A stretch of DNA of 64,000 bases from positions 14,286 through 78,285 of the forward strand of contig JAGNHB010000018.1 in the NCBI GenBank assembly GCA_018001935.1. The letters run 5' to 3'. Positions 32,540-64,000 of this stretch are shown here, in pieces. This DNA comes from Acidobacteriota bacterium. GTDB taxonomy: Bacteria > Acidobacteriota > JAAYUB01. Within the stretch, counting starts at the first letter, position 1; the number at the start of each line of letters is the position of its first letter. The position numbers and the translations under genes were made by a program. The notes beneath the pieces are model-generated. The model worked only from the letters and a program-made list of their open reading frames with translations. It made no database searches and was not told the origin of the DNA.

Positions 32540-32925
32540 CTCCACTCGGAGCTGTTTTTCGATGGGCATGGGATGTTTATCGGAGTCGGAAAAGGACGAA
32601 AGGACCAAAAGGACCAAAAGGACCAAAGGGACGGCAAGAACCGAAAAACATGAAAGATATGAAAGACATGAAAGACATGATCCCCAACCTCCAGCCCTGG
32701 CCTTCCGCCTTGTGTCTGCAACATCTTTCCGCCTCGTGTCTCCGACAAGCCTTCCGCCTCGTGTCTCCCGCAAACCTTCCGCCTGTTTCCCTTGCGATGC
32801 CGATTGCGATGCCGATTGCGACTGCGATTGCGACTGCGATTGCGATACCGATACCGATACCGATTCCGACCCCGATGGGAAGATCCCCGGACCTTCAGCC
32901 TAACAGCCTTCAGCCTAACAGCCTA
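32540..32925. repeat. composite repeat element: AAAGGAC x5, ATGAAAGAC x3, approximately 21-nt CCTTCCGCCTCGTGTCTCC x3-4, GATKGCGA/GATACC hexamer array, CCGATGGGAAGATCCCCGGACC linker, TTCAGCCTAACAGCC x2
   Basis: read directly; fills the whole 390-bp spacer between macA and the ATPase gene; the macA TAG stop lies in the terminal cagcctac. Confidence 0.9.
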
Positions 32926-34389: not shown

Positions 34390-34662
34390 AAAGCGATTCG
34401 CCTGCGAACGGGGACTCCGCCGGAAGGGGTGTCCGGTTCCGGGACGGGCTGTCCCGAAAGCGGACACTTTCTGGGGGCCCTCCCGCAAACTCTTCGATTT
34501 TCGGGGCCGTCTCCGGGTATAATAGGCCCGTAGGATCGATCGAAAAGGGGGGGAATGCCCGGGGGCCGGGCCGTTCAAGGTTTGGAACCGCCCCGGGTCG
34601 TGGGGCGGGCGGTCCTGGATCGCCCGGTTGCCCGTGTCCACCCCCTCGGGTCAGGATGGTTT

Positions 34663-43949: not shown

Positions 43950-44300
43950 CTTCGCGATCTTGGCGCCTTGGCGAGAGCCGACCCGGATCTTGATCTCGTA
44001 AAGGCGCAAAGATCGCAAAGGAAGACTGCAAAAGGAAGGGAGAAGATCGAGGGTTGCGGGCTGTAGTCGACAAGGGGGCCGCCGATCCCGGTCGCGAGCG
44101 CGTCCCCGGTCGAGTGCGACAGCGCGTGCGAGTGCGGCTGCGACAGCGCATGCGATTGCGATTGCGATTGCGATTGCGACGGCGATTGCGACGGCGATTG
44201 CGATACCGATAGCGATTGCGATACCGACCCCGATACCGATACCGACCTCGATGGGAACCCCTCCGGACCTACAGCCTACAGCCTATAGCCTACAGCCTAA
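43950..44300. repeat. composite repeat element: GCAAAG block, long GCGAYWGCGA/GATACC hexamer array, CTCGATGGGAACCCCTCCGGACC linker, CCTACAG x4
   Basis: read directly; lies immediately downstream of the 44312 gene. Confidence 0.9.
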
Positions 44301-46559: not shown

Positions 46560-47030
46560 AAACCAAGAACCACACGAAACAGCGACCACGAAACACTTGA
46601 AAACGGAACCGCAAACCGCACGAAAGAGAACCGCCCCTTGTTTGTCGGGAAGGCGGACCGAATTCCCGCGAAGAAACAGGACAGGCCGGAAATCAACCGC
46701 TCGAGGGCGTTCTGGTTTTCCGGGAAAGGACGAAAGGACTTAAAGGACCAAAACGACCCAAAGGACAGGGTGGGCGGCCACTTTTTCTCCGCGGTCCGGT
46801 TCGGGGATCCCGCACCGTGATCCGTTTCTTCTCATCGCTCCCCTTCATCCCCTTCATCCCCTTCATCCCATTCATCCCATTCATCCCATTTATCCCATTT
46901 ATCCCATTCATCCCATCATTCCCATTCTCCCCACTCTCTGCTTTCTTCTCTCTTTTTCTTTGCTTTCTTTGCTCTCTTTGCTTTCTTTGCGGTTTCTGCT
47001 CTCTTTGTGGCTTCCCCCGGTTTCGCGCCC
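46560..47030. repeat. composite repeat region: CACGAAC block, AAAGGAC x5, CCCATTCAT 9-mer x10, CTTTGCTTT array
   Basis: read directly. Confidence 0.9.
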
Positions 47031-47031
47031 G

Positions 47032-48807
47032 TCACTTCCTGTAAAGTCGGCGGGCGAAGGCGCGGGCGAAGTCCACCATTTCCTCCTGGGTGTTGACGAA
47101 GTGGACGTTCCAGCCCTGCTCCCGGAGTCGTTGAACCTCGGGCGATGCGTAAGACTCCGGCATGTGCAGCACGAAGGTGCCGCCCCCCCTCGCCGCCGCC
47201 AGGGCCCGGGCGGCGACCCCCCAGCCGTCCGGTGCGTCCTCCAGCATGTGGAAGATGTCGTGGTCGGACACCACCATGACGTGGACGGGATTGCGGGGGG
47301 GCGGCCCTTTCAGGAACGCATCCTCCAGCCGGAGGACCCCGAAGGCGTAGCCGGTGCCGAGGTAGTTGACCAGGACCTCCAGGACTTCCGCCGGGTTGCG
47401 GATGAACCCGCGGGTCTGGTGGAATTTTCCCGGTTCGCCGGAGAGGCACGCCATCACCCGCGCCCCGGCCCGCAGCGCCGACAGGGCCACGATGGCGCCC
47501 GCCAGGACCGGGTGGGAGAGATGCGCCGCCGGGTTGAGCATGGAGCCCGAGCAGTCGATGCCGAGGTAGAGGTCGGTGGGGACCCGGGCGGGCTCGGGGC
47601 CCTCCACCGCCCCGTGGAGCCGCCGGACCGTGGTCACGCCGGGGATCACCACCGGACTGCGGACGGCCGTCTCCACCCAGTCGATCTCCTGGGGGCTTCG
47701 GCCCGTGTCCCACACGTCCACGCCCTCGGGTTGGGGTTCCATGGATTTCCCGAGGACCTTGACGGGAAAGCGGATCAGGTGGGGAATGGCCCGCTCCCGG
47801 TAGTAGCGGGCGACCAGGTCCTGCTCGGGAACGTCCACCCCGAGGCCCCGCATCAGCGCGGTGTACGCCTCGGGGTCGCGGTACGTCTTCACCCCGCCCA
47901 CGGTCTCCTTCCCGTCACCCGCCACGGGCGCCTTCTCGGGGGCCGCCGCCTCCCCCGTCACCAGCGGGTCCTCGGCGGGGTGGACGGCGGCCTCCTCGTC
48001 CGCCTCGATCTCGGCCAGGCCGTCGGGGACCTCGATCCCGGCGCCCGCCTGCGCGGTGTCGAGCCAGATCATCCGCCCCCGGCCCAGGCCTTCCTGCTCC
48101 GGTATCTCCAGAAAGTAGGGGAGCAGCAGCGCGGCGAAGCGGCCAGCGCCCTTGAGCCAGTCCTTCGCGTAGACGCGGACGACCCGGGCCCCGAGGCCGG
48201 CGTCCACCTCCAGGGCGGGGTCGGGCGGCCCCGCCGCCGCCAGCGTCCCGCCCGGCAGGGCCCACAGGACCTCGTAGATCCGCATGTAGAGGCGCCACAG
48301 CCGGTCGTCTTCCCTCGTTTTGCCCCTGAGCGCCCGGTAGACGGCGGCCATGTCGAGGCCGGCGCCGCGCTGGAGACGGTCGTTGACCAGGAGGTCGGCG
48401 TAGAGGTTGGCCGCCAGTCCCGCGAAGGCCTCGCGGGTGGGGAGGCCCGCGCGCATGCGGGCCAGGAGGCGGCCGTTGTCGGCCAGGTCGGCGGGGCACA
48501 GGGCGTGGTGCCCCGCCTCGTGGGCCAGGATGGCGGTGGCCAGGGCGTGGTGACCGGCTTCGTGGGCCGGGATGGCGGGGTCGCGCTGGTCCAGTCCCAG
48601 TTCCTGGATTTTCCGGAGGTTGATCACCACGGTGTGGTCGAGGAGCCGGATCATGGCGATGGAATCGTAGATCCCCTCGTCCTCCTCCCTCAGGCGCCAC
48701 GTGGGCGGCCTCAGGCGCAGGAAGGGGCTCCAGGCCGCCAGGGCCGCCGGCCAGCACGCCTCCCACCCGGCCTGCAGGGAAGCGAGCGCGGCGTCCTTCG
48801 CCCTCAC
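47032..48807 (-). CDS. vWA (MIDAS) domain protein with N-terminal HExxH metallopeptidase-like motif (DUF2201-like architecture)
   Basis: MIDAS DLYLGIDCSGSM; duplicated HEAGHHAL; GTG start at 48807 overlaps the upstream stop (GTGA); alternative ATG at 48654. Confidence 0.7.
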   Translation of the reverse strand: MRAKDAALASLQAGWEACWPAALAAWSPFLRLRPPTWRLREEDEGIYDSIAMIRLLDHTVVINLRKIQELGLDQRDPAIPAHEAGHHALATAILAHEAGHHALCPADLADNGRLLARMRAGLPTREAFAGLAANLYADLLVNDRLQRGAGLDMAAVYRALRGKTREDDRLWRLYMRIYEVLWALPGGTLAAAGPPDPALEVDAGLGARVVRVYAKDWLKGAGRFAALLLPYFLEIPEQEGLGRGRMIWLDTAQAGAGIEVPDGLAEIEADEEAAVHPAEDPLVTGEAAAPEKAPVAGDGKETVGGVKTYRDPEAYTALMRGLGVDVPEQDLVARYYRERAIPHLIRFPVKVLGKSMEPQPEGVDVWDTGRSPQEIDWVETAVRSPVVIPGVTTVRRLHGAVEGPEPARVPTDLYLGIDCSGSMLNPAAHLSHPVLAGAIVALSALRAGARVMACLSGEPGKFHQTRGFIRNPAEVLEVLVNYLGTGYAFGVLRLEDAFLKGPPPRNPVHVMVVSDHDIFHMLEDAPDGWGVAARALAAARGGGTFVLHMPESYASPEVQRLREQGWNVHFVNTQEEMVDFARAFARRLYRK

Positions 48808-49823
48808 GCCGGCACCGCCGCCAGGAGCCACACGACGTGGCTCCGTTCCAGGGCCACCGCCAGGGTCTCGCCGTCGGCGGCGGCGGTGCCGGCGCCGGAC
48901 AGCTCGGGGACGCACGCTTCCAGGCCCCGGAAGCGCACCCGGCCCCCGGGCTGAAGGTGGGCCGCCACCGCCGTCCCGGACGGCCGGGGCGGGACCGGGT
49001 CGTCCGCCCGGGTGAGGGTGCAGCCGAAGTGGTCGGCGTGGATTTCCCGGACCGTTTCGCCGTCGGTGGCCAGGAGGCGGCGGCCGTCCGCGGCCACCCA
49101 CGGCGGGCGGGCGAAGGGGCCGCCGAAGCCGCGAAAGGCGCCCGTTCGCGCCATGACCCGGAGGGCCAGGCTTTCGGCGGGCCCCGGTCGGCGAGGGTCG
49201 TACCACCGGCTGATGCACAGGCCCTCCAGCGCCCGGCGCACCCCGGCCTCGTCCACGCCGGGGGTCCCCAGGACCGCGGCCTGCAGCGGCGGGGGGAGCG
49301 TCCGGCACACCGCCAGGGCCGACGGGCGATAGTGGGCGAGACCGACGGTCCAGGCCAGGACCTGCCCCGCCGCCAGCAGTTCGCCGGGGTTGCGGGCCAG
49401 GGGGGAAACCCCGGCCAGGGCCGCCGTCCAGCGCTCCAACGCCGGTCGCCCGTGTTCAGCCACCGCCAGGGCGCCGTTGAAGACCGCCGCCAGGACCTGC
49501 CGCGGGGCCGCCGCCAGGTGGGGCAGGAGCCGGGGCAGGGCCGTCTCCCAGGCCCGGGCGGGGAGGGGCGAGACGGCCCGGGGACCGAGCAGCCGCAGGG
49601 CGAAGAGGTCGAGGGAGACGTCGCAGAGGGCGTGGACCAGCGCGTCCAGGTTGGGGAGACCCCCGCCGGCGGCCGCCGACACCAGGCGGTCCACCGGGCC
49701 GCGGAGGTGCTCCAGGTACTCCCCGGCGTCGAGTCCGGGCCAACGCTCCCGGGCCTCGGCGAAGCGTGCATTGAAGGCGTCGCGGTCCCGGGCGAGGACG
49801 TTTTGGAAGACGGGGTGGATCAC
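48804..49823 (-). CDS. hypothetical protein encoded between the AAA+ and vWA genes (candidate vWA-MoxR-associated component)
   Basis: GTG start at 49823 overlaps the AAA+ stop (GTGA), and the stop overlaps the vWA start; mostly alpha-helical, Ala/Leu-rich. Confidence 0.55.
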   Translation of the reverse strand: MIHPVFQNVLARDRDAFNARFAEARERWPGLDAGEYLEHLRGPVDRLVSAAAGGGLPNLDALVHALCDVSLDLFALRLLGPRAVSPLPARAWETALPRLLPHLAAAPRQVLAAVFNGALAVAEHGRPALERWTAALAGVSPLARNPGELLAAGQVLAWTVGLAHYRPSALAVCRTLPPPLQAAVLGTPGVDEAGVRRALEGLCISRWYDPRRPGPAESLALRVMARTGAFRGFGGPFARPPWVAADGRRLLATDGETVREIHADHFGCTLTRADDPVPPRPSGTAVAAHLQPGGRVRFRGLEACVPELSGAGTAAADGETLAVALERSHVVWLLAAVPA

Positions 49824-51409
49824 GGCTTCCACTTCAGCCAGCGCAGGTAGTTGGTGTAGCGCTGGTGGAGGTACTTCAGCTTCAGGATCCGGTCGTACAT
49901 GTGGCCGTAGAGCTTGCGGGAGGCGCTCCACTCCCGGAGCACCTTCTCCACCTTCGCCAGGCGCCTGCGCACGTCGCCCTCGGCGACCCCCACGAGGCCG
50001 CTGCCGAACTCCTCCTCCAGCGGGGTCAGCGGGTCCGCGCGGTCGAGGTCGAGGCGGTCGTACTCCTTGCACGCGGCGTCGAAAAGGCTGCGGATCCAGC
50101 TCACGCGGTCGGTCCGGAGGGCGGCGTTGCGGCCCTGCTCGAAGAAGGGGCTCTCGGGGTTGGGCACCAGTTTGTCCTGGAGGACGAAGGGGAGGACCTG
50201 CCGGACGTCCTCGAAGTCGACGCTGGGTCTCCCCCGGAACCAGGCCGCGGCCTTGACGTAGGCCAGGGCCGTCATGAGGGCGCGCACCGAGAGGCCGTTC
50301 AAGGTCTGGCCGCCCAGGTCCACGGCGCGGTCGCGGCCGGTCTCCCCGGCGGCGAGGGCGACGAGGTCGGCGCCGGCGAGCTTGACGGTGTCCTTGGTCA
50401 TGTACTCCACCTGGTGGGCGGCGGGCTCGAAGAACTCGAAGTGCCCCGCGAAGAACTCCAGACGCTTCAGGAGCGGGGCGGGGAAGCCCACGGCGCGGAC
50501 CTGGGCCTCCGCGGCGTCCAGCTCGGTCTCGGTGAAGACGAGGCGGGACGGGACCACCTCCTCGGGGCGGACGTTCTCCTCGAGGCGCGTCAGCAGCTCC
50601 CCGAGGAAACGGGTGTTGAAGTGGAGGGCCCGGACCACCACGTCGATACGGTCGCGCAGGGCCTCGATCACCTGGTAGGTCCCGCCGCCGGCGTCGTCGT
50701 TGGCCGTGAGGTACCAGGCCGCCTCGGGGCACTCGAAGACCTGGTCGTACATCTCGGCGTAGTTGTCCGCCATGACGGTGAGGAGGGCGGACTGGGTGCG
50801 GGTGGGGATGCGGTTGTACTCGTCGATGATCTTGATGCGCATCCCGAGCCACTTCCGCCAGGCGATGCGGATGTCCTCGTTGCTGGCGGCGCTCACCATG
50901 GAGCTGGGGAGGGGGTTGCCCAGGAGGTCCGCCACGGTCATCTGGGGCTGGCCGTGCTGGATGGCCCGCCGGATCTCCCGCAACGAGTAGCCCGACAGGA
51001 CGCCCATGAGGATGGCGATGGCGGTTTTCCCCCGCCCGGGGCCGCCCACCAGCAGGCAGCGGCGCCGCACCGCCAGGGTGAGGAGGGGCAGCAGCACGAA
51101 ACTGGAGTAGCTCTGGTCGCTCGGAAGCCGAACGGTGACCTTCGCGTCGCCGAACTCGTAGGAGAGGGGCGGCGTGTCGTTGTACTCGATATCGTAGTGG
51201 GGGCTGATGATGGCGTGGTTGGTGACCCAGAAGTACACCTGGCGGAACTTCTCGTCCAGCGGCACCGCGCCGGGCTCCGCGGCGCGGCCGTCGTCCACGG
51301 GGCCCTGGTAGAGGTCCGCCACGTCGAAGCGGGGCCGCCCCGCCGCCGGCGACGCCGGGTGCGTGGGCGCCTCGGAGACCTTCTCGTAGTCGCGCTTGAA
51401 AAACCCCAT
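49820..51409 (-). CDS. MoxR-like AAA+ ATPase with long N- and C-terminal extensions
   Basis: Walker A GGPGRGKT, Walker B/sensor IIDEYNRIPTRTQSALLTVMAD (MoxR signature); GGAGGG RBS before ATG at 51409. Confidence 0.8.
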   Translation of the reverse strand: MGFFKRDYEKVSEAPTHPASPAAGRPRFDVADLYQGPVDDGRAAEPGAVPLDEKFRQVYFWVTNHAIISPHYDIEYNDTPPLSYEFGDAKVTVRLPSDQSYSSFVLLPLLTLAVRRRCLLVGGPGRGKTAIAILMGVLSGYSLREIRRAIQHGQPQMTVADLLGNPLPSSMVSAASNEDIRIAWRKWLGMRIKIIDEYNRIPTRTQSALLTVMADNYAEMYDQVFECPEAAWYLTANDDAGGGTYQVIEALRDRIDVVVRALHFNTRFLGELLTRLEENVRPEEVVPSRLVFTETELDAAEAQVRAVGFPAPLLKRLEFFAGHFEFFEPAAHQVEYMTKDTVKLAGADLVALAAGETGRDRAVDLGGQTLNGLSVRALMTALAYVKAAAWFRGRPSVDFEDVRQVLPFVLQDKLVPNPESPFFEQGRNAALRTDRVSWIRSLFDAACKEYDRLDLDRADPLTPLEEEFGSGLVGVAEGDVRRRLAKVEKVLREWSASRKLYGHMYDRILKLKYLHQRYTNYLRWLKWKP

Positions 51410-51499: not shown

Positions 51500-51830
51500 T
51501 GTCACCGGCGGTTTCGAGGCGAAAGGACGAAAGGACCAAAAGGACCCAAAGGACCAAAAGGACCGCGACAAGCCGGTGCCGGATGCAACGAGACCGTAAC
51601 CGGCATTGCCATCGCTGTGGGTATCGCTGTCGCCGTCGTCGCTGTCGCCGTCGTCGCAGCCTCCGATCCCGTCTCCCTCATCGTCAGCCCCTGGCCGTCC
51701 TTTGCGTCCCTTTGGTCCCTTTGGTCCTTTCGTCCTTTGATTCCGACCTCGATCCCGATTGCGACAGCGACCCCGATCCCAACCCCGATGGAAAATCCGA
51801 AAAGAACCGGTGTACGTCCCGAAACATAGG
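51500..51830. repeat. composite repeat element: AAAGGAC array, GC-rich hexamer block, inverted GTCCTTT array, GATYCCGA hexamers, CCCCGATGGAAAATCCG linker
   Basis: read directly upstream of the AAA+ gene. Confidence 0.85.
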
Positions 51831-52617: not shown

Positions 52618-52865
52618 ACCTGATGCAGGAATTCGAGGTGGCGGTGGAGAAGGGGGAGGACGGCAGCTACCGCGCGTCCGTTCCCGGTCTGCCGGGCTGC
52701 GAAGCCCGGGCGAAGAACCTGGAGCAGTTGATGCCCCGGGTGCGCCAGGCTGTCCTGTCCCGGCTCGCGGAGGAAGGCGGCGGGCCCGGCGCCGGGGACG
52801 AGCTCGTGTTGCGGGTGTCCATCTCGCTGCCCGCGCCCTGGGCCCCCTTCCCGCGCGAGTGCTGA
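52614..52865 (+). CDS. HicB-family antitoxin-like protein (no HicA found)
   Basis: EFEVAVEKGEDGSYRASVPGLPGCEARAKNLEQL matches the HicB N-terminal consensus. Confidence 0.6.
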   Translation: MNLMQEFEVAVEKGEDGSYRASVPGLPGCEARAKNLEQLMPRVRQAVLSRLAEEGGGPGAGDELVLRVSISLPAPWAPFPREC

Positions 52866-52910
52866 GACGTTCGCCGCGGGGGCGGCCATCCGGCAGGTCG
52901 GAAACCAGCC

Positions 52911-52940
52911 GAAGCCGCGCGCGTAAGCAAGCGGTTAAAG
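52911..52940 (+). promoter_or_regulatory. copy of the GCCGCGCGCGTAAGCAAGCGGTTAAAG motif, 30-60 nt upstream of the 52970 start
   Basis: about 26/30 identity with 37012-37042. Confidence 0.45.
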
Positions 52941-52969
52941 ATCTGTTATTTACCACTTGGAGGTGCGTA

Positions 52970-54199
52970 ATGGTGAGACGGAGCGTGTTCCGCGTTTCGG
53001 CGGTCGGCGTGTGCCTGCTGCTGGCCGTCCTGGCCGCGACCCCGTGCCCGGCCCAGAAAAAGGCCGCCACGGCCCCGCCAAAGCCGGCCCCCGCCGCGCA
53101 GAAAGCGACCCCGGCCGCGGCCCCGGAGAAGATCGTGCCGTGTCCGCCCGACTTTGTGCTGGAAAAAGAACTCCCCGGCGAGGACCCCTTCTGGGTCTAC
53201 CGGCCCACCTTCTCGCCGGACGGCCTCACCGCCGCCGGTTTCCTCCACTCCAGCCACAAGATCCTGATCTGGGACCTCAAGACGGCGAAGGTGATCAAGG
53301 AGTACGACGAGTCGGTCCACGGCATGCCGGCCCTGGACGGGTTTGAGTACACCGCGGACGGCAAGATGCTGATCCTGATCTACCGGGACCTCCCGCTGAA
53401 GTTCCTGGACCTCGCCGCGGGGAAGGTGGTCCGCACCCTGCCCACCGCGGCGGACCCCAAGAAGGTCTACGACTACGCCTTCAGCCCGGACATGAAGCTC
53501 CTGGCCTTCGGGACCACCACCGGCATCAAGCTGTGGGACCTGGAGAAGGGCGCCCAGATCGCCACGTACCTCGACGGGAAGACCGTCAGCGGCCTGGACA
53601 TCGTCTACTACAAGACGAAGGAGGGCAAGCTCGTCCGACTCATGGCCTACGGGCTGTTCCTGGGGAAAGGGGCCGAGTTCCGCGACGTGGCGGGGATCAT
53701 CGATCTCGACACCGGGGCGGTGAAGCCGGTCCTCAACGACGTTCCGAAGGAGAAGGTGAAACTGGGCGACATGACCCTCTTCTGGGTCTCCTTCGAGCAC
53801 GGCGGCGGCTACCTGATGGTGGGCTACTCGGTCTTCCCGCCCCAGGTGACCGCGGGCGTCTACCTGGTGGGGACGGCCACCGGCAAGTACCTGGCCGACC
53901 ACGCCCTGGAGCAGTACATCCTGATGTACGACGCCTGCTACCTCTGGAAGCCCTTCTACGGCTATCTGGTCTGCACCAGGAACATGAAAGTGGACCCCTA
54001 CAAGGTGAGCACGGAGTTCCTGGTGATCACGAAGACGGACGGGCTCACGGCCATCGACTGCACCCGCGAGGACAAGCTGGCGGTGCAGTCCGTCACCGTC
54101 GCCCGGGACCAGTCCCGGGCGCTGATCGCCACCAAGGCCTCCCAGGCGGCCCCCAGCAAGGTGTACCTGTACCGCCTGGTGCCCAAGACGCCGAAGTAG
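52970..54199 (+). CDS. secreted WD40/beta-propeller-like protein
   Basis: signal peptide MVRRSVFRVSAVGVCLLLAVLAATPCPA; repeated LxxWDL/FSPD blade-like motifs; GGAGG RBS. Confidence 0.65.
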   Translation: MVRRSVFRVSAVGVCLLLAVLAATPCPAQKKAATAPPKPAPAAQKATPAAAPEKIVPCPPDFVLEKELPGEDPFWVYRPTFSPDGLTAAGFLHSSHKILIWDLKTAKVIKEYDESVHGMPALDGFEYTADGKMLILIYRDLPLKFLDLAAGKVVRTLPTAADPKKVYDYAFSPDMKLLAFGTTTGIKLWDLEKGAQIATYLDGKTVSGLDIVYYKTKEGKLVRLMAYGLFLGKGAEFRDVAGIIDLDTGAVKPVLNDVPKEKVKLGDMTLFWVSFEHGGGYLMVGYSVFPPQVTAGVYLVGTATGKYLADHALEQYILMYDACYLWKPFYGYLVCTRNMKVDPYKVSTEFLVITKTDGLTAIDCTREDKLAVQSVTVARDQSRALIATKASQAAPSKVYLYRLVPKTPK

Positions 54200-54240: not shown

Positions 54241-54494
54241 GGAACTCAATCGGCGGCTCTCTGTCTCCGGAAGGCCTTTCCCGGCCGCTGCCGCCCAGAT
54301 CGGACCGATCGGTCGGATCCGACGGATCGGTCCGATGCTGCCCCTCCCCGTCCTCGGCCGTTCAGGCTCCGGCGGCGTGCGGGTCCTTCGCAACCCGGGC
54401 CGTCTGGGGCCGACCGCGCCGCTCCGCGGACTGCGCGGCGCGGGGAAAGCGGCGCTCCGGCAACCTGCGCACCGCACTCCGCAGCGGAGACGGC

Positions 54495-54650
54495 GGCGGC
54501 GATCCCGATTGCGACAGCGATCCCGATTACGACAGCGAGAGCGATTGCGATACCGATACCGATACCGATGGGAACCCCTCCGGACCTACAGCCTACAGCC
54601 TTCAGCCTTCAGCCTTCAGCCTAAACCCCTTCAGCCTATCCCCTACCTTC
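54495..54650. repeat. composite repeat element: GATCCCGATTGCGACAGC hexamer array, CCGATGGGAACCCCTCCGGACC linker, CCTACAG/CCTTCAG heptamers
   Basis: read directly; the giant gene's TAG stop lies in the terminal ccctacc. Confidence 0.9.
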
Positions 54651-57600
54651 CCGGCGGTGCGGCCTCCTTCACCACGGCGCCGTCGGTGTCGCTGAGGACG
54701 AGAATGGCGAAGCGGTCCGTGCGGTCCAGGTCGTCGGTGCTCAGCGAGGCGTAGTCGAAGCGCCCGCGCAGGTCGGTGTAGCCGTCCTTGTAGAAGTTGA
54801 CGGAGCCGTCCTTCCACCGGGCGTACACCTTCACGTAGGCCTTGGACACGGGCCGGCCGCCGGCCTCGCGGGTCACCTTGACCTGCCCGAAGGCCTCCAC
54901 CACCTGCACGGTGAGCGCGCCGCCGTGGCAGGGGGTGGTCCGGGTCACGCCGCCGCCCTCGGCCGAGACCACCACGTCGGCGTTCTGCAGGCCGGGCGGG
55001 AGGTCCACCACGGTCCGGGTCGCCCCCGGCGCCGGCTTGACCACACGTGTCTCCTTTGCCCTCACGACCGCGGCCTGCCCGGCGGTGGCCCCCCCGAACG
55101 GGTCGCGGGAGAAGAGCACCTCGGCGTCCGTGGGGTGGAAGCCCAGGCGGATCTCCGGCACGTTGCGGTGCTCCAGGACGATCTTCCGCCCCTCCACCTT
55201 CAATTCCAGCGAGGGTTCCGTGGACGCCAGCGCCTCCTGCCGGCGGTTGCGGTCGTTGCGGTCGGGGGCCGCCGCACCCGCGCGCCCCTCCATCTCGTCC
55301 AGCTGTGCCAGGACGTCGCCGAAGCGTTCGGCCCAGCGCTTGACGGGGTGGCTTTTGTAGCCCTGCGCCAGGGCCCGGGCCGTGGCGGGCGTGTCGGTGA
55401 AGAAGGCCAGCCAGGCGGCGCAGTAGTCGTACTGGAGCCGGGTGGCGAGCTTGCCCGCATCCACCTTGGCGAAGAGGTCCCGCCCCTCGGGGATGCGGTC
55501 CTGCAGGAGCAGGTAGTAAGCCGCCTCGAGCCGGTCGGCGTCGGTCAGTGTGGGCCTGAAGGCCAGCAGGTTCAGGAAGGCCTGGTACTGGGCCGACAGG
55601 CGGTCGTTGGGGATGGTCCGCTGCTTCCCGAAGGTGTGGGCGCGGGCGTTGACCAGGGGCTCGTACTCCAGGTGCCGGTAGGCGCCGATCGCGGCGGGGT
55701 CGAGATCCAGGAGCGGGCTCTGGAGGAAGGGCCCCAACCGGTCCCGGAAGTCGGGGCGGTGGAGGAGGAATTCCCGGATGGCGGGCACGTCCTTGTGGCG
55801 GACGCCGTAGGAAAAGAGGTCGGCGTCGTAGACGTGGCGCCGGGTCAGGACGTCTAGGGCGGCCCGGTAGAAGGCCGCGTCCTTCACCCGCCAGGCGATC
55901 CGGCCGAGGCGGACCCCGTTGAGGTTCTCTTCGCCCAGGTAGCGCAGGACATCCTCGGGCGGCGCGTCCTGGGAGATGTAGGACCAGGAGGTTTTATCGA
56001 TGACGCTGGGCGTCTCCACCACATGCAGGGGCTTCGCCTCGCAGGCGGCCAGGGGGACGCCGCCCGCCGAGACCTGGGCCGGGTAGTGGGCGAACTCCCC
56101 GGGCTTCGGGAAGTAGAAGAAGTACATGAGCTGCCTCGTGGCGTAGGGGTCCAGCAGGACCGGGACGCTTCGGGTGACCCTGCCGGCGCTGACGGGGACC
56201 GCTCCCCGCGGCACCTGGAGCAGCACGTCCAGGCGCTTGCGCAGCCCGCCCGGGTTGGTCAGGACCACGCGGCAGCCGTAGACCACCCGCGGCAGGAACT
56301 CGCCCTCCACGTACTTCTCCTGGGGCTCGCCGTTGATCATGACGGTGTCCTCATCGGGGCGGAAGAAGCGCTGGGTGGCCAGGATGGAGGCCCCCGCGGG
56401 CTTGCTCTCCCCGGCTTCCCGGATTTCCCGCACCACGGCCAGGGCGGGACTCGCCGCCTTGAGGGTGAAGGCGGTCCCCTCCGCTTTCGTCTCGGGTTTT
56501 TCGGCCTTGAAGGGGACGTCCAGGACCGCCAGGGCGGCCAGGGTCTCGGTCAGGCTCCCCGGCGCCTCCAGGACGTGGGGCGAGCGGAAGCCGTCGCCGC
56601 CCTCGTGGAGGACGAAGTCGAGCCAGAAGCGGTTCGGGCGGACCCGCCCGGGGGACTCGGCCGCGGGGGCGAGCCGGTAGTAGTCGCTCTCGGCCAGTTC
56701 CCTGGTCCGCTCCACCTGGCGGAAGGCGGCCGGGGCGTCCATGCGCCGGGCCTTCATGGCGGCGGGCGCCGGGCGGGGCGCGGACGGCTGCATGGCGGCC
56801 TTCTCCTTCTTGGCGAAATAGCCGTCTCTAGAGCTTTCATCCGCCTCTTCACTCGCCAAGGGCGCGGACGACGCGACCGTGATCTGGTCCGCGGAGATGC
56901 CGGCCTCCGGCATGCCAGAAATCTGGTCCTCCGCGGCTTCACGTGCCTCCTCGAGCCCCAGCCGGTCGCCGGCGTCGAGGCCCTCGATGCCCAGGGCCGT
57001 GTCGAAGCGGAGGACCAGTTCGTCCACGGAGGGAGGGTTCGACTCGAGGTGTTTTCGAATCCAGTCCGCCACCGCCTTGCGCTCCTCGGGGACGCGCACC
57101 GCCAGGAACGCCTTCTCCAGGGTGTTGAGCCGTTCGAAGGCGAAGGGTCGCCGGTACGCGGCCAGGTCCTCCTCCAGCAGGAACTTGTCGATGAAGGTCT
57201 TGGTGAGCTTGTTCTTCAGGTAGGGGCGCACCACCCGGTCGAACCAGGGGCGGTCCTTGAAGTAGAGGAAGAGGTGCAGCTCGTGGGAGGCGCAACGGCC
57301 GTAGGCCTCCGCCCGCTCGGCTTCGCTCATCTTGTCCCAGCGCGGGAGGAAGGCGAACTCGCCGAGGGCGCCGTCGGGGCTGACGGCGGAGAAAAGCCGG
57401 TAGGCCCGGTCGAGGTCGTCCACCAGGACCAGTTTGGCGCTGGTGAGGTCGGCGATGGCGACGGACTCGCCCGCGGCGAGGGGCCGGACCGCCTTCTGCT
57501 CCGTGAAGCGCTTCGCGGGGTCGAGCCCCTCGGCGAGGCACAGGTCGCGGAAGGCGGCGGGCGTCTCGGGAAAGGGGAAGACCCGGCAGGCGGACCGTCG

Positions 57601-60600
57601 CTCGTCGACGGCCAGGACCCGCACCAGTTGGGCGTCTCCCAGGTCCTTGCGGGGGACGGTCACCACACCGTTGGCGTCGGGCCGGAGGTTCGCCAGGAAG
57701 ACGCCGGGGTTGCGGAGGAACTCCAGGGATTCGTAGCCCCCCGGAAGGGCCACGGAGAGCTTGGTTCCCGCATCGCCCCGGGATGCGCCGGCCCATCCTC
57801 CCGCAGCGCCCGCGCCGTACCCTTCGCCGGCCATGCCCGCCTGGACGCCCGTCTCGGTCTTCTCCACCGCCCAGGGGTTGAGGAGGAGCCCCGGCCGGGG
57901 GAGCGTGTTCCCCGGCAGGCGAGGCGCGCGCTGCCGTTCCAGGATGTAGCGCATCTCGTCGTCCAGGGCGCGCCCGCCGGTGTAGTCCGAAAGGGGGACG
58001 CCCACCAGGGCCGACGCCGGGCCCGGGAAGGCGAAGGGCGTCAGGTCGGCGAACAGGTCGTGGTCGGGGAGGAATCGCGAGGCGGCGACGTGCACGCGCG
58101 TCCCGGCCGTCCAGTTCGCCAGCTGGATGCGGACGGCCTCGGCGCCCGCGTCCAGGCGGATCACCTGGAGCGGCTCGGGCGTGGCGGCGTCCCACCGCCG
58201 GTCGCCGTCGCGCAAGCGGCCTTCCGCGCCTTCGGGCGGGGCCAGCCGCACGCCGATCACCCGGCCATCGTCGGGAAGGTACAGTTCGTAGGCGCCCGCC
58301 GGGAGGTCCTTGAGGACGAGGAAGCCGTCCTCCCGGCCGAGGGCGGCGGAGCGGTCGTGCAGGGCCACCCCGCGGTCCCCTCGCTCCAGGAGGAAGGGCG
58401 GCGGGCCGTCCGCCGCCGCGCCGGGGATGCGCACGGGCGCCCCGGCGGGGCGGACGACGGGGGACTCCAGGAGGTAGCGGTCCGTGGGGAGCGTCCAGGA
58501 GCGCTGGACGGGTTCCGCCTGGGCCTGGACGGCCGTGACGCCCGGGAGCTTCCCGAGCCGGACGCGCCCGTTCGCGTCGGTCCGCAGCAGGAAGTCCAGC
58601 GTTTCCTTGAAGTCCCGGTGGGTCAGCTGCACCATCACGGCCCGGCCGACCCGCGCTTCGCCGGACTTCCCGAGAAGGTCAACGGCGTAACCGCCCTCGG
58701 CGAGGGAGAGGAAGAGCGCCTCGGTGGCGTCGGTGGCGTCGATGCCGTTGAGGGGGAAGCTCGCCGTGCTGGAAAGGTCCCGGGGCTCCCCGCCCTGGGC
58801 GGGCCTCACCTTCGCCTTCAGCGTGAAGGTGATGGACGTCAGCCGCTCGGGGACCTGGAAGGCGTAGACCGGCTCGAGTTCCCCCTTGAGCGCAAAGTTG
58901 GGGACCTCCCGGACCGATTGGGCGCGGTCCAGGTCCCCGGTGGCGACGACCAGGACCGGGGACTCCAGACAGTCGAGCCCGATCGGTTTGCCGTTGATCG
59001 TGAGGACCGGCCGGACGGCCACGGTGGCCGTCTTCCCGGCCAGGAGCGCCTCCCGCTCCACGTGGAAGCCGGCGTCCAAGCGGTAGTTCTCGGCGAGGTG
59101 GTCCAGGGTGCCCAGGGAGACGGACTCCCCGGCCAGGAAGGCGACGTTTTTCGTCCCGGGCCGCTCGGAGTAGGGGAGGACGATCGTCCCGTCCGCCGCG
59201 GAACGGTAGAGGCGGTTTTCCATCCACAGGCCGGCGTCCTTCACGATACGGCCCGACTCGTCCAGGACCGTGACGTGCTGGCCGTCAGCGGCAGGTTCCG
59301 TCAGGGCGGTCAGGCGCCCCTTCTGGACCAGGGCGCGCACGCTGCGGCCGTTCCCGATGAAGTCCACCACGTACAGGCCCCGCCCGGACAGCTCGGGGAA
59401 GTCGTAGGACCGGACCACCCGCCGCACCGGCGGTTCCTCGTAGGTGAAGGAGCGCTCGGCGGTGGGGAGGATCCCCTCCAGGTCGGCGTTCCGCTCGAAG
59501 GCGGCCGCGGTGCCCGCCCGGCGGAAGGCCAGCAGGTCGACGGCGTAGACCTTGACCAGGAGGGTCTTGATGTTCTTGACGGCGAGGGAGAGCTTCACCG
59601 GGTCGGCGGCGCCGAAGGTCCGCGGGTTGACGGGGAGGAACTCCAGGTCCACCCGTTCCTTCAGGGCGTCGGCCACCACGGGGGTCAGAACGGCGGTCAG
59701 GCGCTGGGGGTCCCCCTTGCCGGCCAGGAGCCGGGTCTCGGCCCAGAGTTTCTGAAGGTACCCGCTCTCGATGAACTCCGCGAACTCGGCGGGCGTGTCG
59801 GCGTCCTCGAGAAACCGGGCCAGGTAGTCGCGGACCAGGGGCTCGTCGTCGCCCGCGCCCAGCAGGGCGAGCTGGCTCCCCCACGAGGAGTTCATGTCGC
59901 CCAGCGACTGGCGTCCGCCGGACTTGGCCCGGAAGTCGGGGTTGACGTAGCCGGCGGCCTTCGGCAGGCGCAGGTAGGCCAGGAAACGGGCCCGGTCGTA
60001 GGTGCCCCGGGTCCGGTCCTCGAGGAGGCGGTGGTAGAGGACGAGGGCTTTCAACCCGTCGAAGGCGGGGGCCAGGCGTTCAGCGAAAGCTTGAAGACGC
60101 TCGAGATACGCCATGCGCTCCGCGGGGGAGGCCTCCAGCTGGGCGGCGCCGTCCCGCGGGCGCAGGCGGACGAGGCAGGCGCCCACGTAGTTGGTGTTCC
60201 GGAGCAGGGCGGGCCGGAGTGCGGCCAGTTCGTCCAGCTGCTCCTGTGTCAGTTGACGGTGGACCATGTAGTCGCCGAAGCCGCGCTCGGGGTGGGCGTC
60301 CAGGTCCTCGGCGACCCAGCGGGCCAGGTCGGGGAGGATGGGGAGTTGAAGCCGCTTGAGGATCTCGTGCTTGAGGCGGGCGTCCGGGTTCAGGGCCGCC
60401 AGGCGGGGCAGGGCCGAGTCGTTGAAGCGGGAGAGCCCGGGGTCCTGCGCGAGGTACTTCGCCGCCAGTTTCCCGAAGTCCAGGGCGTCCGGGGCGAGGG
60501 TGGACGGCGTGGTGTCGGCCCCGGCCGCGTTCTCGCGCTCGTGGTCGAAGCGCAGGCCCAGCTCGTCCTTCAACCGGGTCAGGGATTTCTCCGGGTCGGC

Positions 60601-60912
60601 GCTGTAGAGCAGGAGGATCTGCCGGCACAGGAGCTGCCGGCGCCGGTCGGAGTCGCCGAGCGCTTCGCGCCACTGCTGGAGGAGGGTGTCCGCCTCGGCG
60701 AGCTTGCCCTGGTGCTGGTACAGGAGGCATCGGTAGTAGAAGTGCTCCTCGGAGCCCGGCACCAGCTGGGCCAGCGCGGCCTCGCGGTCGGGGGCCAGGG
60801 CGAAGGTCTCCTCGAAGCCCACGGGGCTCTGGGCGCAGAGGGCCCCCGTGAAGACCGGAAGTCCCAGGAGCCAGAACAGGGCGGTGAAGGCAAGGCGGGA
60901 AGCGTGGCGCAT
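54643..60912 (-). CDS. giant secreted protein (2089 aa) with N-terminal helical/TPR-like region, multiple beta-sandwich (macroglobulin-like?) domains and C-terminal transthyretin/CarboxypepD_reg-like domain
   Basis: ATG at 60912 with GGAGG RBS and signal peptide MRHASRLAFTALFWLLGLPVFTGALCAQ; no thioester CxEQ seen. Confidence 0.75.
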   Translation of the reverse strand: MRHASRLAFTALFWLLGLPVFTGALCAQSPVGFEETFALAPDREAALAQLVPGSEEHFYYRCLLYQHQGKLAEADTLLQQWREALGDSDRRRQLLCRQILLLYSADPEKSLTRLKDELGLRFDHERENAAGADTTPSTLAPDALDFGKLAAKYLAQDPGLSRFNDSALPRLAALNPDARLKHEILKRLQLPILPDLARWVAEDLDAHPERGFGDYMVHRQLTQEQLDELAALRPALLRNTNYVGACLVRLRPRDGAAQLEASPAERMAYLERLQAFAERLAPAFDGLKALVLYHRLLEDRTRGTYDRARFLAYLRLPKAAGYVNPDFRAKSGGRQSLGDMNSSWGSQLALLGAGDDEPLVRDYLARFLEDADTPAEFAEFIESGYLQKLWAETRLLAGKGDPQRLTAVLTPVVADALKERVDLEFLPVNPRTFGAADPVKLSLAVKNIKTLLVKVYAVDLLAFRRAGTAAAFERNADLEGILPTAERSFTYEEPPVRRVVRSYDFPELSGRGLYVVDFIGNGRSVRALVQKGRLTALTEPAADGQHVTVLDESGRIVKDAGLWMENRLYRSAADGTIVLPYSERPGTKNVAFLAGESVSLGTLDHLAENYRLDAGFHVEREALLAGKTATVAVRPVLTINGKPIGLDCLESPVLVVATGDLDRAQSVREVPNFALKGELEPVYAFQVPERLTSITFTLKAKVRPAQGGEPRDLSSTASFPLNGIDATDATEALFLSLAEGGYAVDLLGKSGEARVGRAVMVQLTHRDFKETLDFLLRTDANGRVRLGKLPGVTAVQAQAEPVQRSWTLPTDRYLLESPVVRPAGAPVRIPGAAADGPPPFLLERGDRGVALHDRSAALGREDGFLVLKDLPAGAYELYLPDDGRVIGVRLAPPEGAEGRLRDGDRRWDAATPEPLQVIRLDAGAEAVRIQLANWTAGTRVHVAASRFLPDHDLFADLTPFAFPGPASALVGVPLSDYTGGRALDDEMRYILERQRAPRLPGNTLPRPGLLLNPWAVEKTETGVQAGMAGEGYGAGAAGGWAGASRGDAGTKLSVALPGGYESLEFLRNPGVFLANLRPDANGVVTVPRKDLGDAQLVRVLAVDERRSACRVFPFPETPAAFRDLCLAEGLDPAKRFTEQKAVRPLAAGESVAIADLTSAKLVLVDDLDRAYRLFSAVSPDGALGEFAFLPRWDKMSEAERAEAYGRCASHELHLFLYFKDRPWFDRVVRPYLKNKLTKTFIDKFLLEEDLAAYRRPFAFERLNTLEKAFLAVRVPEERKAVADWIRKHLESNPPSVDELVLRFDTALGIEGLDAGDRLGLEEAREAAEDQISGMPEAGISADQITVASSAPLASEEADESSRDGYFAKKEKAAMQPSAPRPAPAAMKARRMDAPAAFRQVERTRELAESDYYRLAPAAESPGRVRPNRFWLDFVLHEGGDGFRSPHVLEAPGSLTETLAALAVLDVPFKAEKPETKAEGTAFTLKAASPALAVVREIREAGESKPAGASILATQRFFRPDEDTVMINGEPQEKYVEGEFLPRVVYGCRVVLTNPGGLRKRLDVLLQVPRGAVPVSAGRVTRSVPVLLDPYATRQLMYFFYFPKPGEFAHYPAQVSAGGVPLAACEAKPLHVVETPSVIDKTSWSYISQDAPPEDVLRYLGEENLNGVRLGRIAWRVKDAAFYRAALDVLTRRHVYDADLFSYGVRHKDVPAIREFLLHRPDFRDRLGPFLQSPLLDLDPAAIGAYRHLEYEPLVNARAHTFGKQRTIPNDRLSAQYQAFLNLLAFRPTLTDADRLEAAYYLLLQDRIPEGRDLFAKVDAGKLATRLQYDYCAAWLAFFTDTPATARALAQGYKSHPVKRWAERFGDVLAQLDEMEGRAGAAAPDRNDRNRRQEALASTEPSLELKVEGRKIVLEHRNVPEIRLGFHPTDAEVLFSRDPFGGATAGQAAVVRAKETRVVKPAPGATRTVVDLPPGLQNADVVVSAEGGGVTRTTPCHGGALTVQVVEAFGQVKVTREAGGRPVSKAYVKVYARWKDGSVNFYKDGYTDLRGRFDYASLSTDDLDRTDRFAILVLSDTDGAVVKEAAPPGR

Positions 60913-61379
60913 GACATCCTCCGTTTGGGCGACAGTCGTGGCGGGGGCGCAAGCCTCGACCTCGCGCAGCGCCGCGAAGTCGCAACACCTCGCAAGGAAG
61001 CCATGAGGTTTGGGCCGGATCCAGGGCCTCGGAGGGGATCGTCGCTGCGAAACCTCGGAGCCATCCTGTTTTTCCCTGCGGGCTGTCTTGCGCGTCCACG
61101 TGTATTGGACACCCATCCGGACGTTTTCACCAGATATTTTTTGCAGGGTTTTTCACCTCCGGTCCTGACCTGGCCGGAAAACGCCTCGATCCCCGCCGGG
61201 GGATCAATTTGAATGGACCGATGGGGAGTGCGGCGCGGAGGCTTGCCGGAGCGCCGCTTTGCGACAAGCCCCAGGCGCAAGGCGCGCAGGCCGCCGGAGC
61301 GCCGAATTCCCGTCGCCGCCGACCCGTCGTTTCGGCCTCGGGTCCGACCCAATGCCGCCACCCCGCAGGATACGGGTGC

Positions 61380-61702
61380 CAGGTGTTGGTTAACTTCGCT
61401 TCCACCAGTTCGTCGACCGCCCCGTCGCGAACCACGACGAAATCGACCTCGCGGCCGTCCCGGTCGCGCAGGAACGCGAGCTCCCACTCCTCGCCGGTGT
61501 AGTCCTCCAGGAAGTCGATCTTCTTCCGCAGGTGCGTGGCGACCAGGTTCTCGAACCGTGCGCCCGGTTGCCGGTCCTCGGGGCAATCAACGTCCAGGTT
61601 GTCGTAGAAGTACGCCTTGAAAGGTCCCTGCACGGCCCGGGCCACGTTGACCGAGTAGGGCCGCACCACGAAGACCAGGTACATCCGGCTGAGGATCTCC
61701 AC
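61380..61702 (-). pseudogene. 5'-truncated fragment of a DUF4143-containing AAA+ ATPase gene
   Basis: PFKAYFYDNLDV...ARFENLVATHL...EVDFVVV...VEAK matches the DUF4143 C-terminal domain; no AAA domain upstream; the ORF tail runs into low-complexity sequence. Confidence 0.5.
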
Positions 61703-61840
61703 CCAGTGGGGAAGATGGGCGACCTGTTACGGCAATCTCCCAATGAAATCCAACCGTCCTTTGCGCACATAGGCCATTCCCGTTTCCACGAATGATCGAA
61801 AAAAGCCCGCACAGATCAGACGGTCGAGATCGCCGTACCG

Positions 61841-62668
61841 TCACAGCCCGCCACGCACCGGCCACACGGAGGAGGAGACCGTTTTTAAGCCCGCCACAGG
61901 GGTCAAGACGCCGTCCGACAGCCTCACGTACCAGGCGTACGTTGGCACGTCGGTGTAGGTGGTACTCGTCCACGCGAAGGCCGGGACGCCGGTGAAGGGT
62001 GGGCCAGGAGGCCACCCCGGGCCCAAGCTGTGCAACTCGTTTGCGTTGGGCAGCCGCCAGTCTCCCTCGGCCGACCCATCACTCAAGTTGCACTCGCCGC
62101 TGTGCAGCGTCTTGGCGGAACTCAAGGCCGCAGTCCATGTCTGCGTACCAAGGCAAGAAGCGTCCTTCAGCCAGATCAGCGCCGTCAGGTTATCGGTGAC
62201 CGTGCCGTCGCCGTTGTCTGTGAAGCGCACCCCCGTCCACGCCGGCGTGTTGTACCCACCACCGCTCATAGTGGGCACCACGGCTGGATCGATGCCCGCC
62301 CGGTACTCACCGTCCTGGCCTGTTCCCGAGCAGGCGATCACGTTGCCCGCCTCATCGTAGCACGTTGTCTGGCCGGTCTTGGCCACGCGCTTCGCCAGCG
62401 CGCGCGGCTGCGCTTTGGCCATGATCTCGTCCAGCGTATGCATCGTGCTCCCCGGCCCGCTCGTCGGCTCCGTGAACCCGCTCAGCTTCACGAAGTAGTA
62501 GCCCGTCGTCAGCCGCTGGTAGATCTGCTCCAGCGTGTACATCCGCGAGCCGGGATCGGCCGGCCCGGCAACCGGCTCCAGCTCCCCAGCCCGTACGACG
62601 CCGGCTGCCGCGAGCAGCAGGCCGATGATCAAACCGATCACGACAACAAACAGGGTTTTGCTGCGCAT
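61841..62668 (-). CDS. DUF1566 (Lcl C-terminal domain) protein with N-terminal TM anchor
   Basis: TGQTTCYDEAGNVIACSGTGQDGEY...RFTDNGDGTVTDNLTALIWLKD...DWRLPNANEL; ATG at 62668 with GGAGG RBS; lower-GC region. Confidence 0.7.
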   Translation of the reverse strand: MRSKTLFVVVIGLIIGLLLAAAGVVRAGELEPVAGPADPGSRMYTLEQIYQRLTTGYYFVKLSGFTEPTSGPGSTMHTLDEIMAKAQPRALAKRVAKTGQTTCYDEAGNVIACSGTGQDGEYRAGIDPAVVPTMSGGGYNTPAWTGVRFTDNGDGTVTDNLTALIWLKDASCLGTQTWTAALSSAKTLHSGECNLSDGSAEGDWRLPNANELHSLGPGWPPGPPFTGVPAFAWTSTTYTDVPTYAWYVRLSDGVLTPVAGLKTVSSSVWPVRGGL

Positions 62669-63239
62669 TGTGAACCTCCCCGGTGCTGTTCCCGGATGCT
62701 TGGGTGAATCATCCTGATCCACGTTACCTGTCTCCTGCCACGCAACTCTACCCGAATTTCCCGGCGTTGGTGCGTGGATCCACATTGAGCGGCGAGGTGG
62801 GGGTCGTACACCGCGGCTCGCCGGGGATCGTCCCGCACGTTACGGACAGGAAGTCGGTTTTTCGATGATCCGTGGGCATGGGTGGAAAATATTCGGAAAT
62901 GGGGAAGCAGTCAAGAGAATTCCGAGCTGACAATAGCTTCATCATCGGCCGCCACCTGGGCGTCCCGGAAGCGGAGGTGGACAAGCTCATCCGGCAGTAC
63001 ATCGAATCGACCCGGGTGGACTTCCCGGACCGCCCGGACGTTTTTCCTCCGGGGTTGTAGCGACCGTAGGCCAGGTGCCCTTTGCCACTCGAAGTGTCGT
63101 GAGTCCGTTGATCCATTTTCGGCGAATTTGAAGTCTGAGTCAAATCTGCCGCGGCAATTTGCAACTCCAGTCAAGTGATGCCGTCAACGGTGCCCCATTC
63201 ACTCTTGGACCCATCTTCGACAGTTGGAGACCAACCTAA

Positions 63240-63300
63240 CCCGGATAAACCGGAATGGAACCACGAACCACACGAACCACACGAAAAAGATCGGACAGGA
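63240..63300. repeat. CACGAAC-type short tandem repeat block
   Basis: ggaatggaaccacgaaccacacgaaccacacgaaaaag. Confidence 0.7.
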
Positions 63301-63438
63301 AATCTTTGCCAATATGACAAAAAGTGCACTTTGAAGGTACTACCGCTCAACCTCCAAACCAACGTGTCGAAGATGGGGTCGATATGTTGGAAACGGAACC
63401 GGGTTACCCACATTATTACCCAGATAATTGGATCTTAC

Positions 63439-64000
63439 CTACATTCTCCGCCAACGGGCGTTACGTCCCATGCCGAGGCATTCCAGTTGGCCGGCCGCTT
63501 TGCGGGCTTTGATCGTCCTCCGGATCAAATCGATACTCACTTCCGGGCAGGCGCGCCGAACGTCCCCCACGCTGAACTCACCCATGACTTGCTGGAGAAA
63601 ACGATCAACCCTCTCGGTCTTCTCCCCCCGCAGCGAATCGAATGATCCGACTCTTTCGATGAACTCGTCGTAGGCCTTTTTCAAGATGAACAACAGGTAG
63701 CCGATGTAGGGCCAGGGATCGTGATTTCCCTCATGCCACCCTTGGGAGCTCTCTTTCAAGGTCTCGTAATACCTCTCCTTGTTTTCTTCGATCAAGCGTT
63801 CGAGGCTGATGTAGCGGCCTACTTCGATCCCCAGATGGTAACAGGTCAAAAGTAACAGCAGGCGGGAGACCCGGCCATTTCCGTCCCGAAAGGGGTGAAT
63901 GCAGAGGAAGTCCAGGTTGAGCGCGGCGATGAGAACAACGGGGGCAATGGCGTGTTCCTTGATTTCTTCCTCCCACAGCGCGAACGCGGACTGCAGGTAA
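63439..64000 (-). CDS. Fic/Doc family protein, C-terminal part (5' end beyond the window)
   Basis: Fic motif IHPFRDGNGRVSRLLLLL in the reverse-strand translation near 63880-63930; C-terminal winged-helix-like tail. Confidence 0.8.
   Translation of the reverse strand, partial: YLQSAFALWEEEIKEHAIAPVVLIAALNLDFLCIHPFRDGNGRVSRLLLLLTCYHLGIEVGRYISLERLIEENKERYYETLKESSQGWHEGNHDPWPYIGYLLFILKKAYDEFIERVGSFDSLRGEKTERVDRFLQQVMGEFSVGDVRRACPEVSIDLIRRTIKARKAAGQLECLGMGRNARWRRM

Follow-up and report, generated by a model that had tools for sequence, protein, structure and literature searches.

A stand-alone 2089-residue gene on an Acidobacteriota contig very probably encodes an exported CAGE-family protein

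The 64,000-nucleotide stretch of Acidobacteriota DNA analysed here (the window) carries one very large gene on its minus strand, and the product of this gene is very probably an exported bacterial member of the CAGE family. The coding sequence spans 54643-60912, with the stop codon at 54643-54645 and the ATG at 60912-60910, and the open reading frame (ORF) list and translation give an uninterrupted 2089 amino acids plus stop, a single chain of ~230 kDa. An earlier inspection of the letters alone, the sequence-only reading, had recognized a single 2089-residue gene with a ribosome-binding site; both are borne out, the site being GGAGG (60918-60922), which precedes the ATG by 5 nt, and the strand, which that reading did not give, is minus. 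The GC content at third codon positions (GC3) is 0.93, matching real genes of this ~70% GC window. Over its full length, the product matches NCBI protein MBP7866141.1 (gene KA419_09345), from an Acidobacteria metagenome-assembled genome, with 100% identity. More than 100 homologs of 2050-2180 amino acids align with it end to end, with gaps nearly nil. Frame errors splitting the ORF, which the sequence-only reading had named as a way in which it could fail, are absent, because these homologs align at full length with almost no indels. Two competing frames were rejected: a longer minus-strand frame reaching 61116, a high-GC artefact to which the homologs lend no support; and a 1729-residue antisense ORF at 56023-61212 on the plus strand, a shadow ORF of high-GC coding DNA and not a gene.

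Residues 1 to ~27 (MRHASRLAFTALFWLLGLPVFTGALCA; 60832-60912, minus strand as for all segments of this protein) form a Sec-type signal peptide with a hydrophobic core score of 2.18 and no lipobox. The signal peptide had been called from the sequence alone, and the call holds for the window protein and for at least 102 of 120 homologs, which share the n-h-c layout and an AxA end before a conserved GEIGF start. No lipobox was found in the window protein or in any of the 120 homologs. Because the predicted Sec signal peptide is cleavable, the protein is predicted to be exported from the cytoplasm via Sec.

The remainder of the chain was modelled in two overlapping AlphaFold2 runs, each with 36 diverse homologs: residues 28-1120 (mean predicted local distance difference test, pLDDT, 83.1; predicted template modelling score, pTM, 0.73) and residues 1000-2089 (pLDDT 73.3; pTM 0.60). 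Equivalent domains of Tetrahymena CAGE1, the family member discussed below, are given in brackets. The mature protein begins with a TPR-like alpha-solenoid at residues 33-419 (59656-60816; CAGE1 domains 1-2), so that the TPR-like N-terminus proposed earlier is confirmed as ~390 modelled helical residues. It is followed, again as proposed, by a series of beta-rich units of ~100 residues: an array of ~6 beta-sandwich domains of macroglobulin (MG) or Ig-like type at residues 420-985 (57958-59655; CAGE1 domains 3-8). The array is followed by a near-invariant segment, residues 984-1014 (57871-57963), comprising the helix DDEMRYILERQR and the motif PGNxLxRPxLLLNPW in alignments of 60-91 sequences; its pLDDT is low when it is modelled without partner domains. 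Residues 1015-1062 (57727-57870) form a hypervariable loop, rich in Ala, Gly and Arg, with pLDDT below 50 and a nearly fixed length of 47-58 amino acids across 60 homologs. Residues 1063-1165 (57418-57726), which have strands in both models, then complete the beta region by supplying the second halves of beta domains whose first halves lie before the loop (compare CAGE1 domains 8-10).

The central helical domain, residues 1166-1332 (56917-57417; CAGE1 domain 11), is modelled with pLDDT 85-95, contains the invariant A-x-H-E-L-x-x-F at 1208-1215 and is the most conserved internal block of the family. It is separated from the C-terminal portion by a linker rich in Ala, Arg, Glu, Lys and Pro, residues 1333-1398 (56719-56916), whose predicted disorder is indicated by a pLDDT of 32-44. 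By the conservation profile and by the lengths and compositions of linkers in homologs, this is the sole strongly indel-rich region of the family, the enclosing segment 1318-1402 varying from 70 to 143 amino acids. Downstream, the secondary structure of the model gives a mixed alpha/beta segment and beta-sandwich at residues 1399-1640 (55993-56718; CAGE1 domain 12 and parts of 10-11), of which residues 1474-1623 are the beta part; a second large, solenoid-like helical domain at residues 1641-1898 (55219-55992; CAGE1 domains 13-14), which is no thioester domain; and a C-terminal double beta-sandwich at residues 1899-2089 (54646-55218; modelled to 2084; CAGE1 domain 15). The last of these carries FYKDGYTDLRGRFDY, the family's most conserved motif.

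In a single-sequence search of a representatives library with the C-terminal half of the protein, 3524 representatives at 50% identity were retrieved at E <= 1e-3 and 1233 at E <= 1e-30; the full-length members were nearly all 2030-2300 amino acids long. Several hundred carriers were found in a scan with one genome per species, mainly among Planctomycetota (including Phycisphaerae and anammox lineages), Verrucomicrobiota, Lentisphaerae, Kiritimatiellia, Riflebacteria/Ozemobacter and Myxococcota. The window protein has one relative at 87% identity; it is about 42% identical to other bacterial members and at most ~46% identical to any member besides that relative; WP_336523963.1, WP_425615021.1, WP_088253768.1 and HEY9071239.1, for example, match at least 99% of its length at 38-40% identity.

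Across the family, ~190 positions are at least 97% conserved. They are scattered along the entire chain, with almost no indels over 2000 amino acids, and the whole chain is under strong purifying constraint. Such near-uniform conservation with few indels fits a tightly packed assembly. Exactly two segments escape it, the loop at 1015-1062 and the linker around 1318-1402. No invariant cysteine occurs anywhere in the family alignments, and neither self-BLAST nor all-against-all hhalign of domain slices detected internal sequence repeats. As a separate observation, one metagenomic contig (L087) encodes two CAGE paralogs on the same strand, at 10001-16411 (P0032, 2136 amino acids) and 21431-26411 (2106 amino acids; probably P0074, judging by length and contig size). 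The two lie 5 kb apart, with a sigma-70-like gene and a gene for a 1329-residue kinase-WD40 protein in between, and some bacteria therefore carry more than one CAGE, as Tetrahymena does.

Scans of the window protein against Pfam, NCBIfam and PHROGs returned no family at E <= 1, and a search of the PDB (copies without the CAGE entries 11KS and 11KT) with the sequence and with a 37-sequence family profile matched no chain. The domains for which the sequence-only reading had suggested searching, A2M_N, MG and CarboxypepD_reg, are thus not detected by Pfam in this protein at that threshold. When four full-length homologs were scanned, together with 26 C-terminal halves (the window's own and 25 from related loci), Pfam gave scattered sub-threshold matches only: bMG3 (E = 0.002), Transglut_C (E = 0.0078) and CarboxypepD_reg (E = 0.028). 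The last, in one homolog, weakly supports the transthyretin-like domain that had been proposed for the C-terminus.

The family to which these proteins can be assigned was described in a preprint on Tetrahymena CAGE1 (I7MLD7), a protein of ~2300 amino acids without Pfam or SCOP domains (bioRxiv 10.1101/2025.09.22.677704). From N- to C-terminus, the 15 domains of CAGE1 are two alpha, eight beta, one alpha, one beta, two alpha and one beta, and alpha-2-macroglobulin (A2M) is the top Foldseek match of its beta-sandwich domains 4 and 6 (bioRxiv 10.1101/2025.09.22.677704). Four copies of CAGE1 assemble into a hollow cage of ~1 MDa; the Dictyostelium ortholog AbpF/DDB_G0291229 (XP_635154.1) was resolved as a homotetramer by cryo-EM at 3.3 Å, and both eukaryotic complexes enclose a cavity of ~18 x 8 x 8 nm with slit-like openings (bioRxiv 10.1101/2025.09.22.677704). 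Most bacterial CAGEs carry signal peptides of 21-22 amino acids; the eukaryotic ones, located in the cytosol or in cilia, have none (bioRxiv 10.1101/2025.09.22.677704). More than two-thirds of 3521 BLASTP homologs are bacterial, mostly from Planctomycetota and Verrucomicrobiota (bioRxiv 10.1101/2025.09.22.677704).

The window protein is itself among the entries listed in Table S2 of this preprint, a BLASTP table whose query was Dictyostelium XP_635154.1. The row for MBP7866141.1 records E = 3e-124, 26.12% identity, a coverage of 0.70, a maximum score of 452 and a length of 2089, and the listed entries also hold the four full-length relatives named above, WP_336523963.1, WP_425615021.1, WP_088253768.1 and HEY9071239.1 (bioRxiv 10.1101/2025.09.22.677704). 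Significant homology to a characterized CAGE is thereby provided by the authors' own table. The other hallmarks of the family are likewise present: a single chain of about the expected length (~2100-2300 amino acids) in which Pfam and NCBIfam find nothing at E <= 1; an N-terminal secretion signal, as in bacterial members; and beta-sandwiches whose nearest solved structures are A2M or Ig-like domains. The domain order, which was derived independently from the AlphaFold models, runs alpha (33-419), beta (420-1165), alpha (1166-1332), linker, beta, alpha (1641-1898), beta; compared by map, it is collinear with the published CAGE1 boundaries. The non-contiguous domains 8-11 of CAGE1 have their counterpart in beta domains that, in the window protein, are split about the variable loop and the linker. 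The taxonomic spread found here also agrees with that of the preprint (Planctomycetota, Verrucomicrobiota, Lentisphaerae, Kiritimatiellia, Riflebacteria, Myxococcota).

Several points weigh against this assignment. The link to CAGE rests on the preprint's BLASTP table and on the agreement in architecture, the alignment to a eukaryotic CAGE being that of its authors. In the listed entries of that table, the window protein is more divergent from the Dictyostelium query (26% identity, 0.70 coverage) than typical Planctomycetota members (~30%, 92%). Tetramer formation in bacteria rests on AlphaFold3 protomer models, the experimental structures being of eukaryotic complexes; the source is a preprint and not peer reviewed; and the container function is a speculation there too (bioRxiv 10.1101/2025.09.22.677704). 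Taken together, the evidence nevertheless argues strongly for an exported bacterial CAGE. The window protein is an already catalogued member, and what is offered here is a correct re-annotation, neither a discovery nor a new kind of system. The sequence-only reading had stated that profile assignment to a different known family would overturn its A2M idea, and such a family has been found, CAGE, with the protein named by accession among the Table S2 entries listed. Among those entries, bacterial CAGEs match the Dictyostelium protein (~30% identity, 92% coverage) better than many eukaryotic homologs do; both this similarity and the isolation of the window protein are relevant to how old a horizontal transfer would be and which way it went.

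The CAGE gene is a stand-alone one: across 80 related loci, none of its neighbours is conserved. No neighbour gene was common to six gene-called neighbourhoods, and in an all-against-all comparison of flanking ORFs over the 80 loci the commonest neighbour, DUF1501, occurred in 6; DUF1501 is massively expanded in genomes of the Planctomycetota-Verrucomicrobiota-Chlamydiota (PVC) group. PSCyt/DUF1553, GFO_IDH_MocA and sulfatase genes were next in frequency.

The most substantial rival is the one that the sequence-only reading favoured, an A2M. In its present form, the protein would be a thioester-less bacterial A2M ('type II', MagD-like) acting as a periplasmic protease trap, in which cleavage of a bait makes the MG array close around the protease. 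The fold of the single beta-sandwich domains speaks for it: an array of MG-type domains is present, with A2M as the top structural match, and in Foldseek the C-terminal half aligns along the C3b alpha' chain (E = 1.4e-5). This collinear alignment is unspecific, however, because scores close to that of C3b are reached by glycosidases of glycoside hydrolase family 2 (GH2). Two exposed hypervariable segments of low confidence, 1015-1062 and 1333-1398, could serve as baits, although a cleavage or trigger role is putative; the protein is exported; one homolog has the weak bMG3 match; the Fimbriiglobus ortholog bears the UniRef name 'Alpha-2-macroglobulin domain-containing protein'; and the CAGE authors themselves liken CAGE to A2M cages (bioRxiv 10.1101/2025.09.22.677704). 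Several findings nevertheless speak against family membership. Pfam finds zero A2M domains at E <= 1 against 11 in relatives of E. coli YfhM, which served as the positive control (the homolog search yielded enterobacterial sequences only, at 83-98% identity). By hhalign against YfhM, the family scores a 0.3% probability as a whole profile and at most 3% for any of 13 domain slices compared with a small YfhM alignment. The structural matches include no fold like the thioester domain (TED), an alpha/alpha-toroid, and the CxEQ motif that it would contain is absent from the protein, as had been said of the thioester from the start. The lipoprotein anchor is lacking, and neither pbpC (type I) nor magABCDEF (type II) genes adjoin the gene in the window or in the 80 loci; the penicillin-binding protein that had been suggested as a partner was likewise sought there and not found. 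Finally, the cytosolic or ciliary location of the eukaryotic homologs, which have no signal peptides, suits an anti-protease guard of the envelope poorly. An A2M is therefore considered improbable: the earlier idea was right about the fold of single domains and wrong about the family.

Two further rivals are both less probable than an A2M. A surface adhesin, S-layer-like protein or envelope scaffold, built of Ig-like domains and TPR interaction modules, would suit an exported protein but appears very unlikely, as such proteins vary in repeat number and evolve fast, whereas this family keeps to 2050-2180 amino acids at ~40% identity across phyla; it also has no internal sequence repeats, no recognized anchor or sorting signal, and intracellular eukaryotic members. 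Hardly credible is a zinc metalloprotease, or another enzyme, using the 'HExxH' motif that the sequence-only reading saw in SHELHLF. This stretch, residues 1209-1215 (S-H-E-L-H-L-F), reads HExH, and the pattern HE..H that zincins require matches nowhere in the window protein. H1210 and E1211 are indeed invariant and lie in the most conserved internal block, but within SHELHLF conservation extends only to H1210, E1211 and L1212 (consensus CHELxFF), so the second histidine, H1213, is not retained. Moreover, the domain is an all-helical bundle whose structural neighbours, like those of the other helical domains, are TPR-like solenoid proteins only; Pfam and NCBIfam show no protease or other catalytic family; and the preprint likewise reports no conserved enzymatic motifs (bioRxiv 10.1101/2025.09.22.677704). 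A GH2-like enzyme was also tried and rejected, since the matches are to the beta-sandwich only and no catalytic barrel is present. Apart from the HExxH claim and the A2M family, the sequence-only reading was essentially correct.

If the window protein is an exported CAGE, homology suggests how it would be assembled. The mature chain would fold into a cup-shaped protomer, four copies of which would form a hollow shell of ~0.9 MDa with slit-like openings. More speculatively, and this is the weakest step, the shell may serve in the periplasm as a molecular container in which client macromolecules are enclosed or held, for instance as a holdase, trap or sequestration device. As the gene stands alone, dedicated partner genes may not be needed. 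By analogy, bacterial CAGE could be a stand-alone periplasmic container that resembles A2M in action while being unrelated to it, with the loop 1015-1062 and the linker 1333-1398 as species-specific baits or gates. In this proposal, which is unlikely on present evidence, the two segments would control the capture of periplasmic or invading macromolecules (proteases, toxins) inside the tetrameric cavity; if true, a megadalton assembly that is conserved between bacteria and eukaryotes would gain its first functional lead.

In the annotation, 'CAGE family protein, exported' takes the place of 'hypothetical protein / A2M-like?'. The family is unannotated in Pfam and NCBIfam and was recognized only in the 2025-26 preprint as a new class of megadalton cages, common to Gram-negative bacteria and unicellular eukaryotes. 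Four observations bear on its function: the gene is stand-alone; the bacterial members are predicted to be exported non-lipoproteins; ~190 positions are near-invariant along the whole chain; and hypervariability is confined to exactly two segments. They provide a frame for experiments in tractable Planctomycetota.

The immediate surroundings of the gene are as the sequence-only reading described them, with a repeat element on one side and a gene fragment on the other. The repeat, at 54493-54615 directly 3' of the CAGE stop codon, is one of four intergenic copies (also at 821-931, 32795-32922 and 44140-44298; one of the four inverted) of an element of ~100-120 nt with 6-nt periodic units (CGATAC/CGATTG-like). 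On the other side, an N-terminally truncated DUF4143 gene fragment (61127-61702, minus) is followed by a gene for a protein with an Lcl C-terminal domain (61841-62785, minus). GC content falls to 0.54-0.64 from ~61000 to 64000, below the rest of the window, and this stretch with its two genes may be an acquired island. Between the CAGE gene and a MoxR-like AAA_3 ATPase gene (49820-51409, minus), which adjoins a 758-residue ORF without Pfam domain (47032-49308, minus), lies a WD40 protein gene on the other strand (52859-54199, plus). The homolog neighbourhoods examined give no sign that the MoxR-like pair is linked to CAGE.

Elsewhere in the window, intergenic gaps contain two families of 9-nt tandem arrays, of the AAAGGACCA and ATCCCATTC types. 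Arrays lie at 23534-23592, 32582-32658, 46716-46783 and 51513-51580 (inverted copy 51691-51759), and also at 31744-31829 and 46856-46959 (inverted copy 31638-31686); some pair as inverted copies 70-130 nt apart. There is also a cluster of large, apparently secreted hydrolases: a 1101-residue protein with a Zn-dependent phospholipase C-like region (8040-11345, minus); a papain-family C1 protease with BACON and Ig domains (11485-14760, minus); a fragment with an InhA-like MAM domain (14645-15406, plus); and an S15 X-Pro dipeptidyl peptidase with dockerin (21571-24153, minus). The gene at 34534-36834 on the plus strand encodes a Ser/Thr protein kinase to which an FGE-sulfatase domain, resembling sulfatase-modifying factors, is fused at the C-terminus.

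Compared with known systems, the window protein resembles the eukaryotic A2M superfamily (A2M, complement C3, CD109, TEP1) in the fold of individual MG-like domains and in the broad concept of a big multi-domain protein that is hollow or forms a cage; human A2M is a homotetramer as well. It differs in lacking the CUB-TED insertion and the thioester, in its overall architecture and in the absence of any detectable sequence relationship. With the bacterial A2Ms (E. coli YfhM/ECAM, Salmonella SaA2M 4u48, Pseudomonas MagD) it shares the character of a large exported multi-domain protein of Gram-negative bacteria; MagD, too, is without a thioester, and the exposed variable segments are comparable to bait regions. 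In contrast to these proteins, it shows no sequence or profile homology to them and has neither TED nor thioester, devotes ~800 amino acids to three TPR-like or helical domains that A2Ms lack, carries a soluble signal peptide in place of a lipoprotein anchor, has no pbpC or mag-operon partners, and is ~450-550 amino acids longer. There are differences from the characterized CAGE proteins (I7MLD7; XP_635154.1) too. The window protein comes from Acidobacteriota, a phylum with few members among the Table S2 entries listed, where its name occurs at least 10 times; it is predicted to be exported, whereas eukaryotic CAGEs are cytosolic or ciliary; and the tetrameric cage has been seen in the eukaryotic complexes, while bacterial members are known from sequence and models. 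In length (~2100-2300 amino acids), absence of Pfam and SCOP domains, order of alpha and beta domains, beta-sandwiches resembling the MG domains of A2M, Sec signal peptides in bacterial members and taxonomic spread, the window protein and CAGE are alike.

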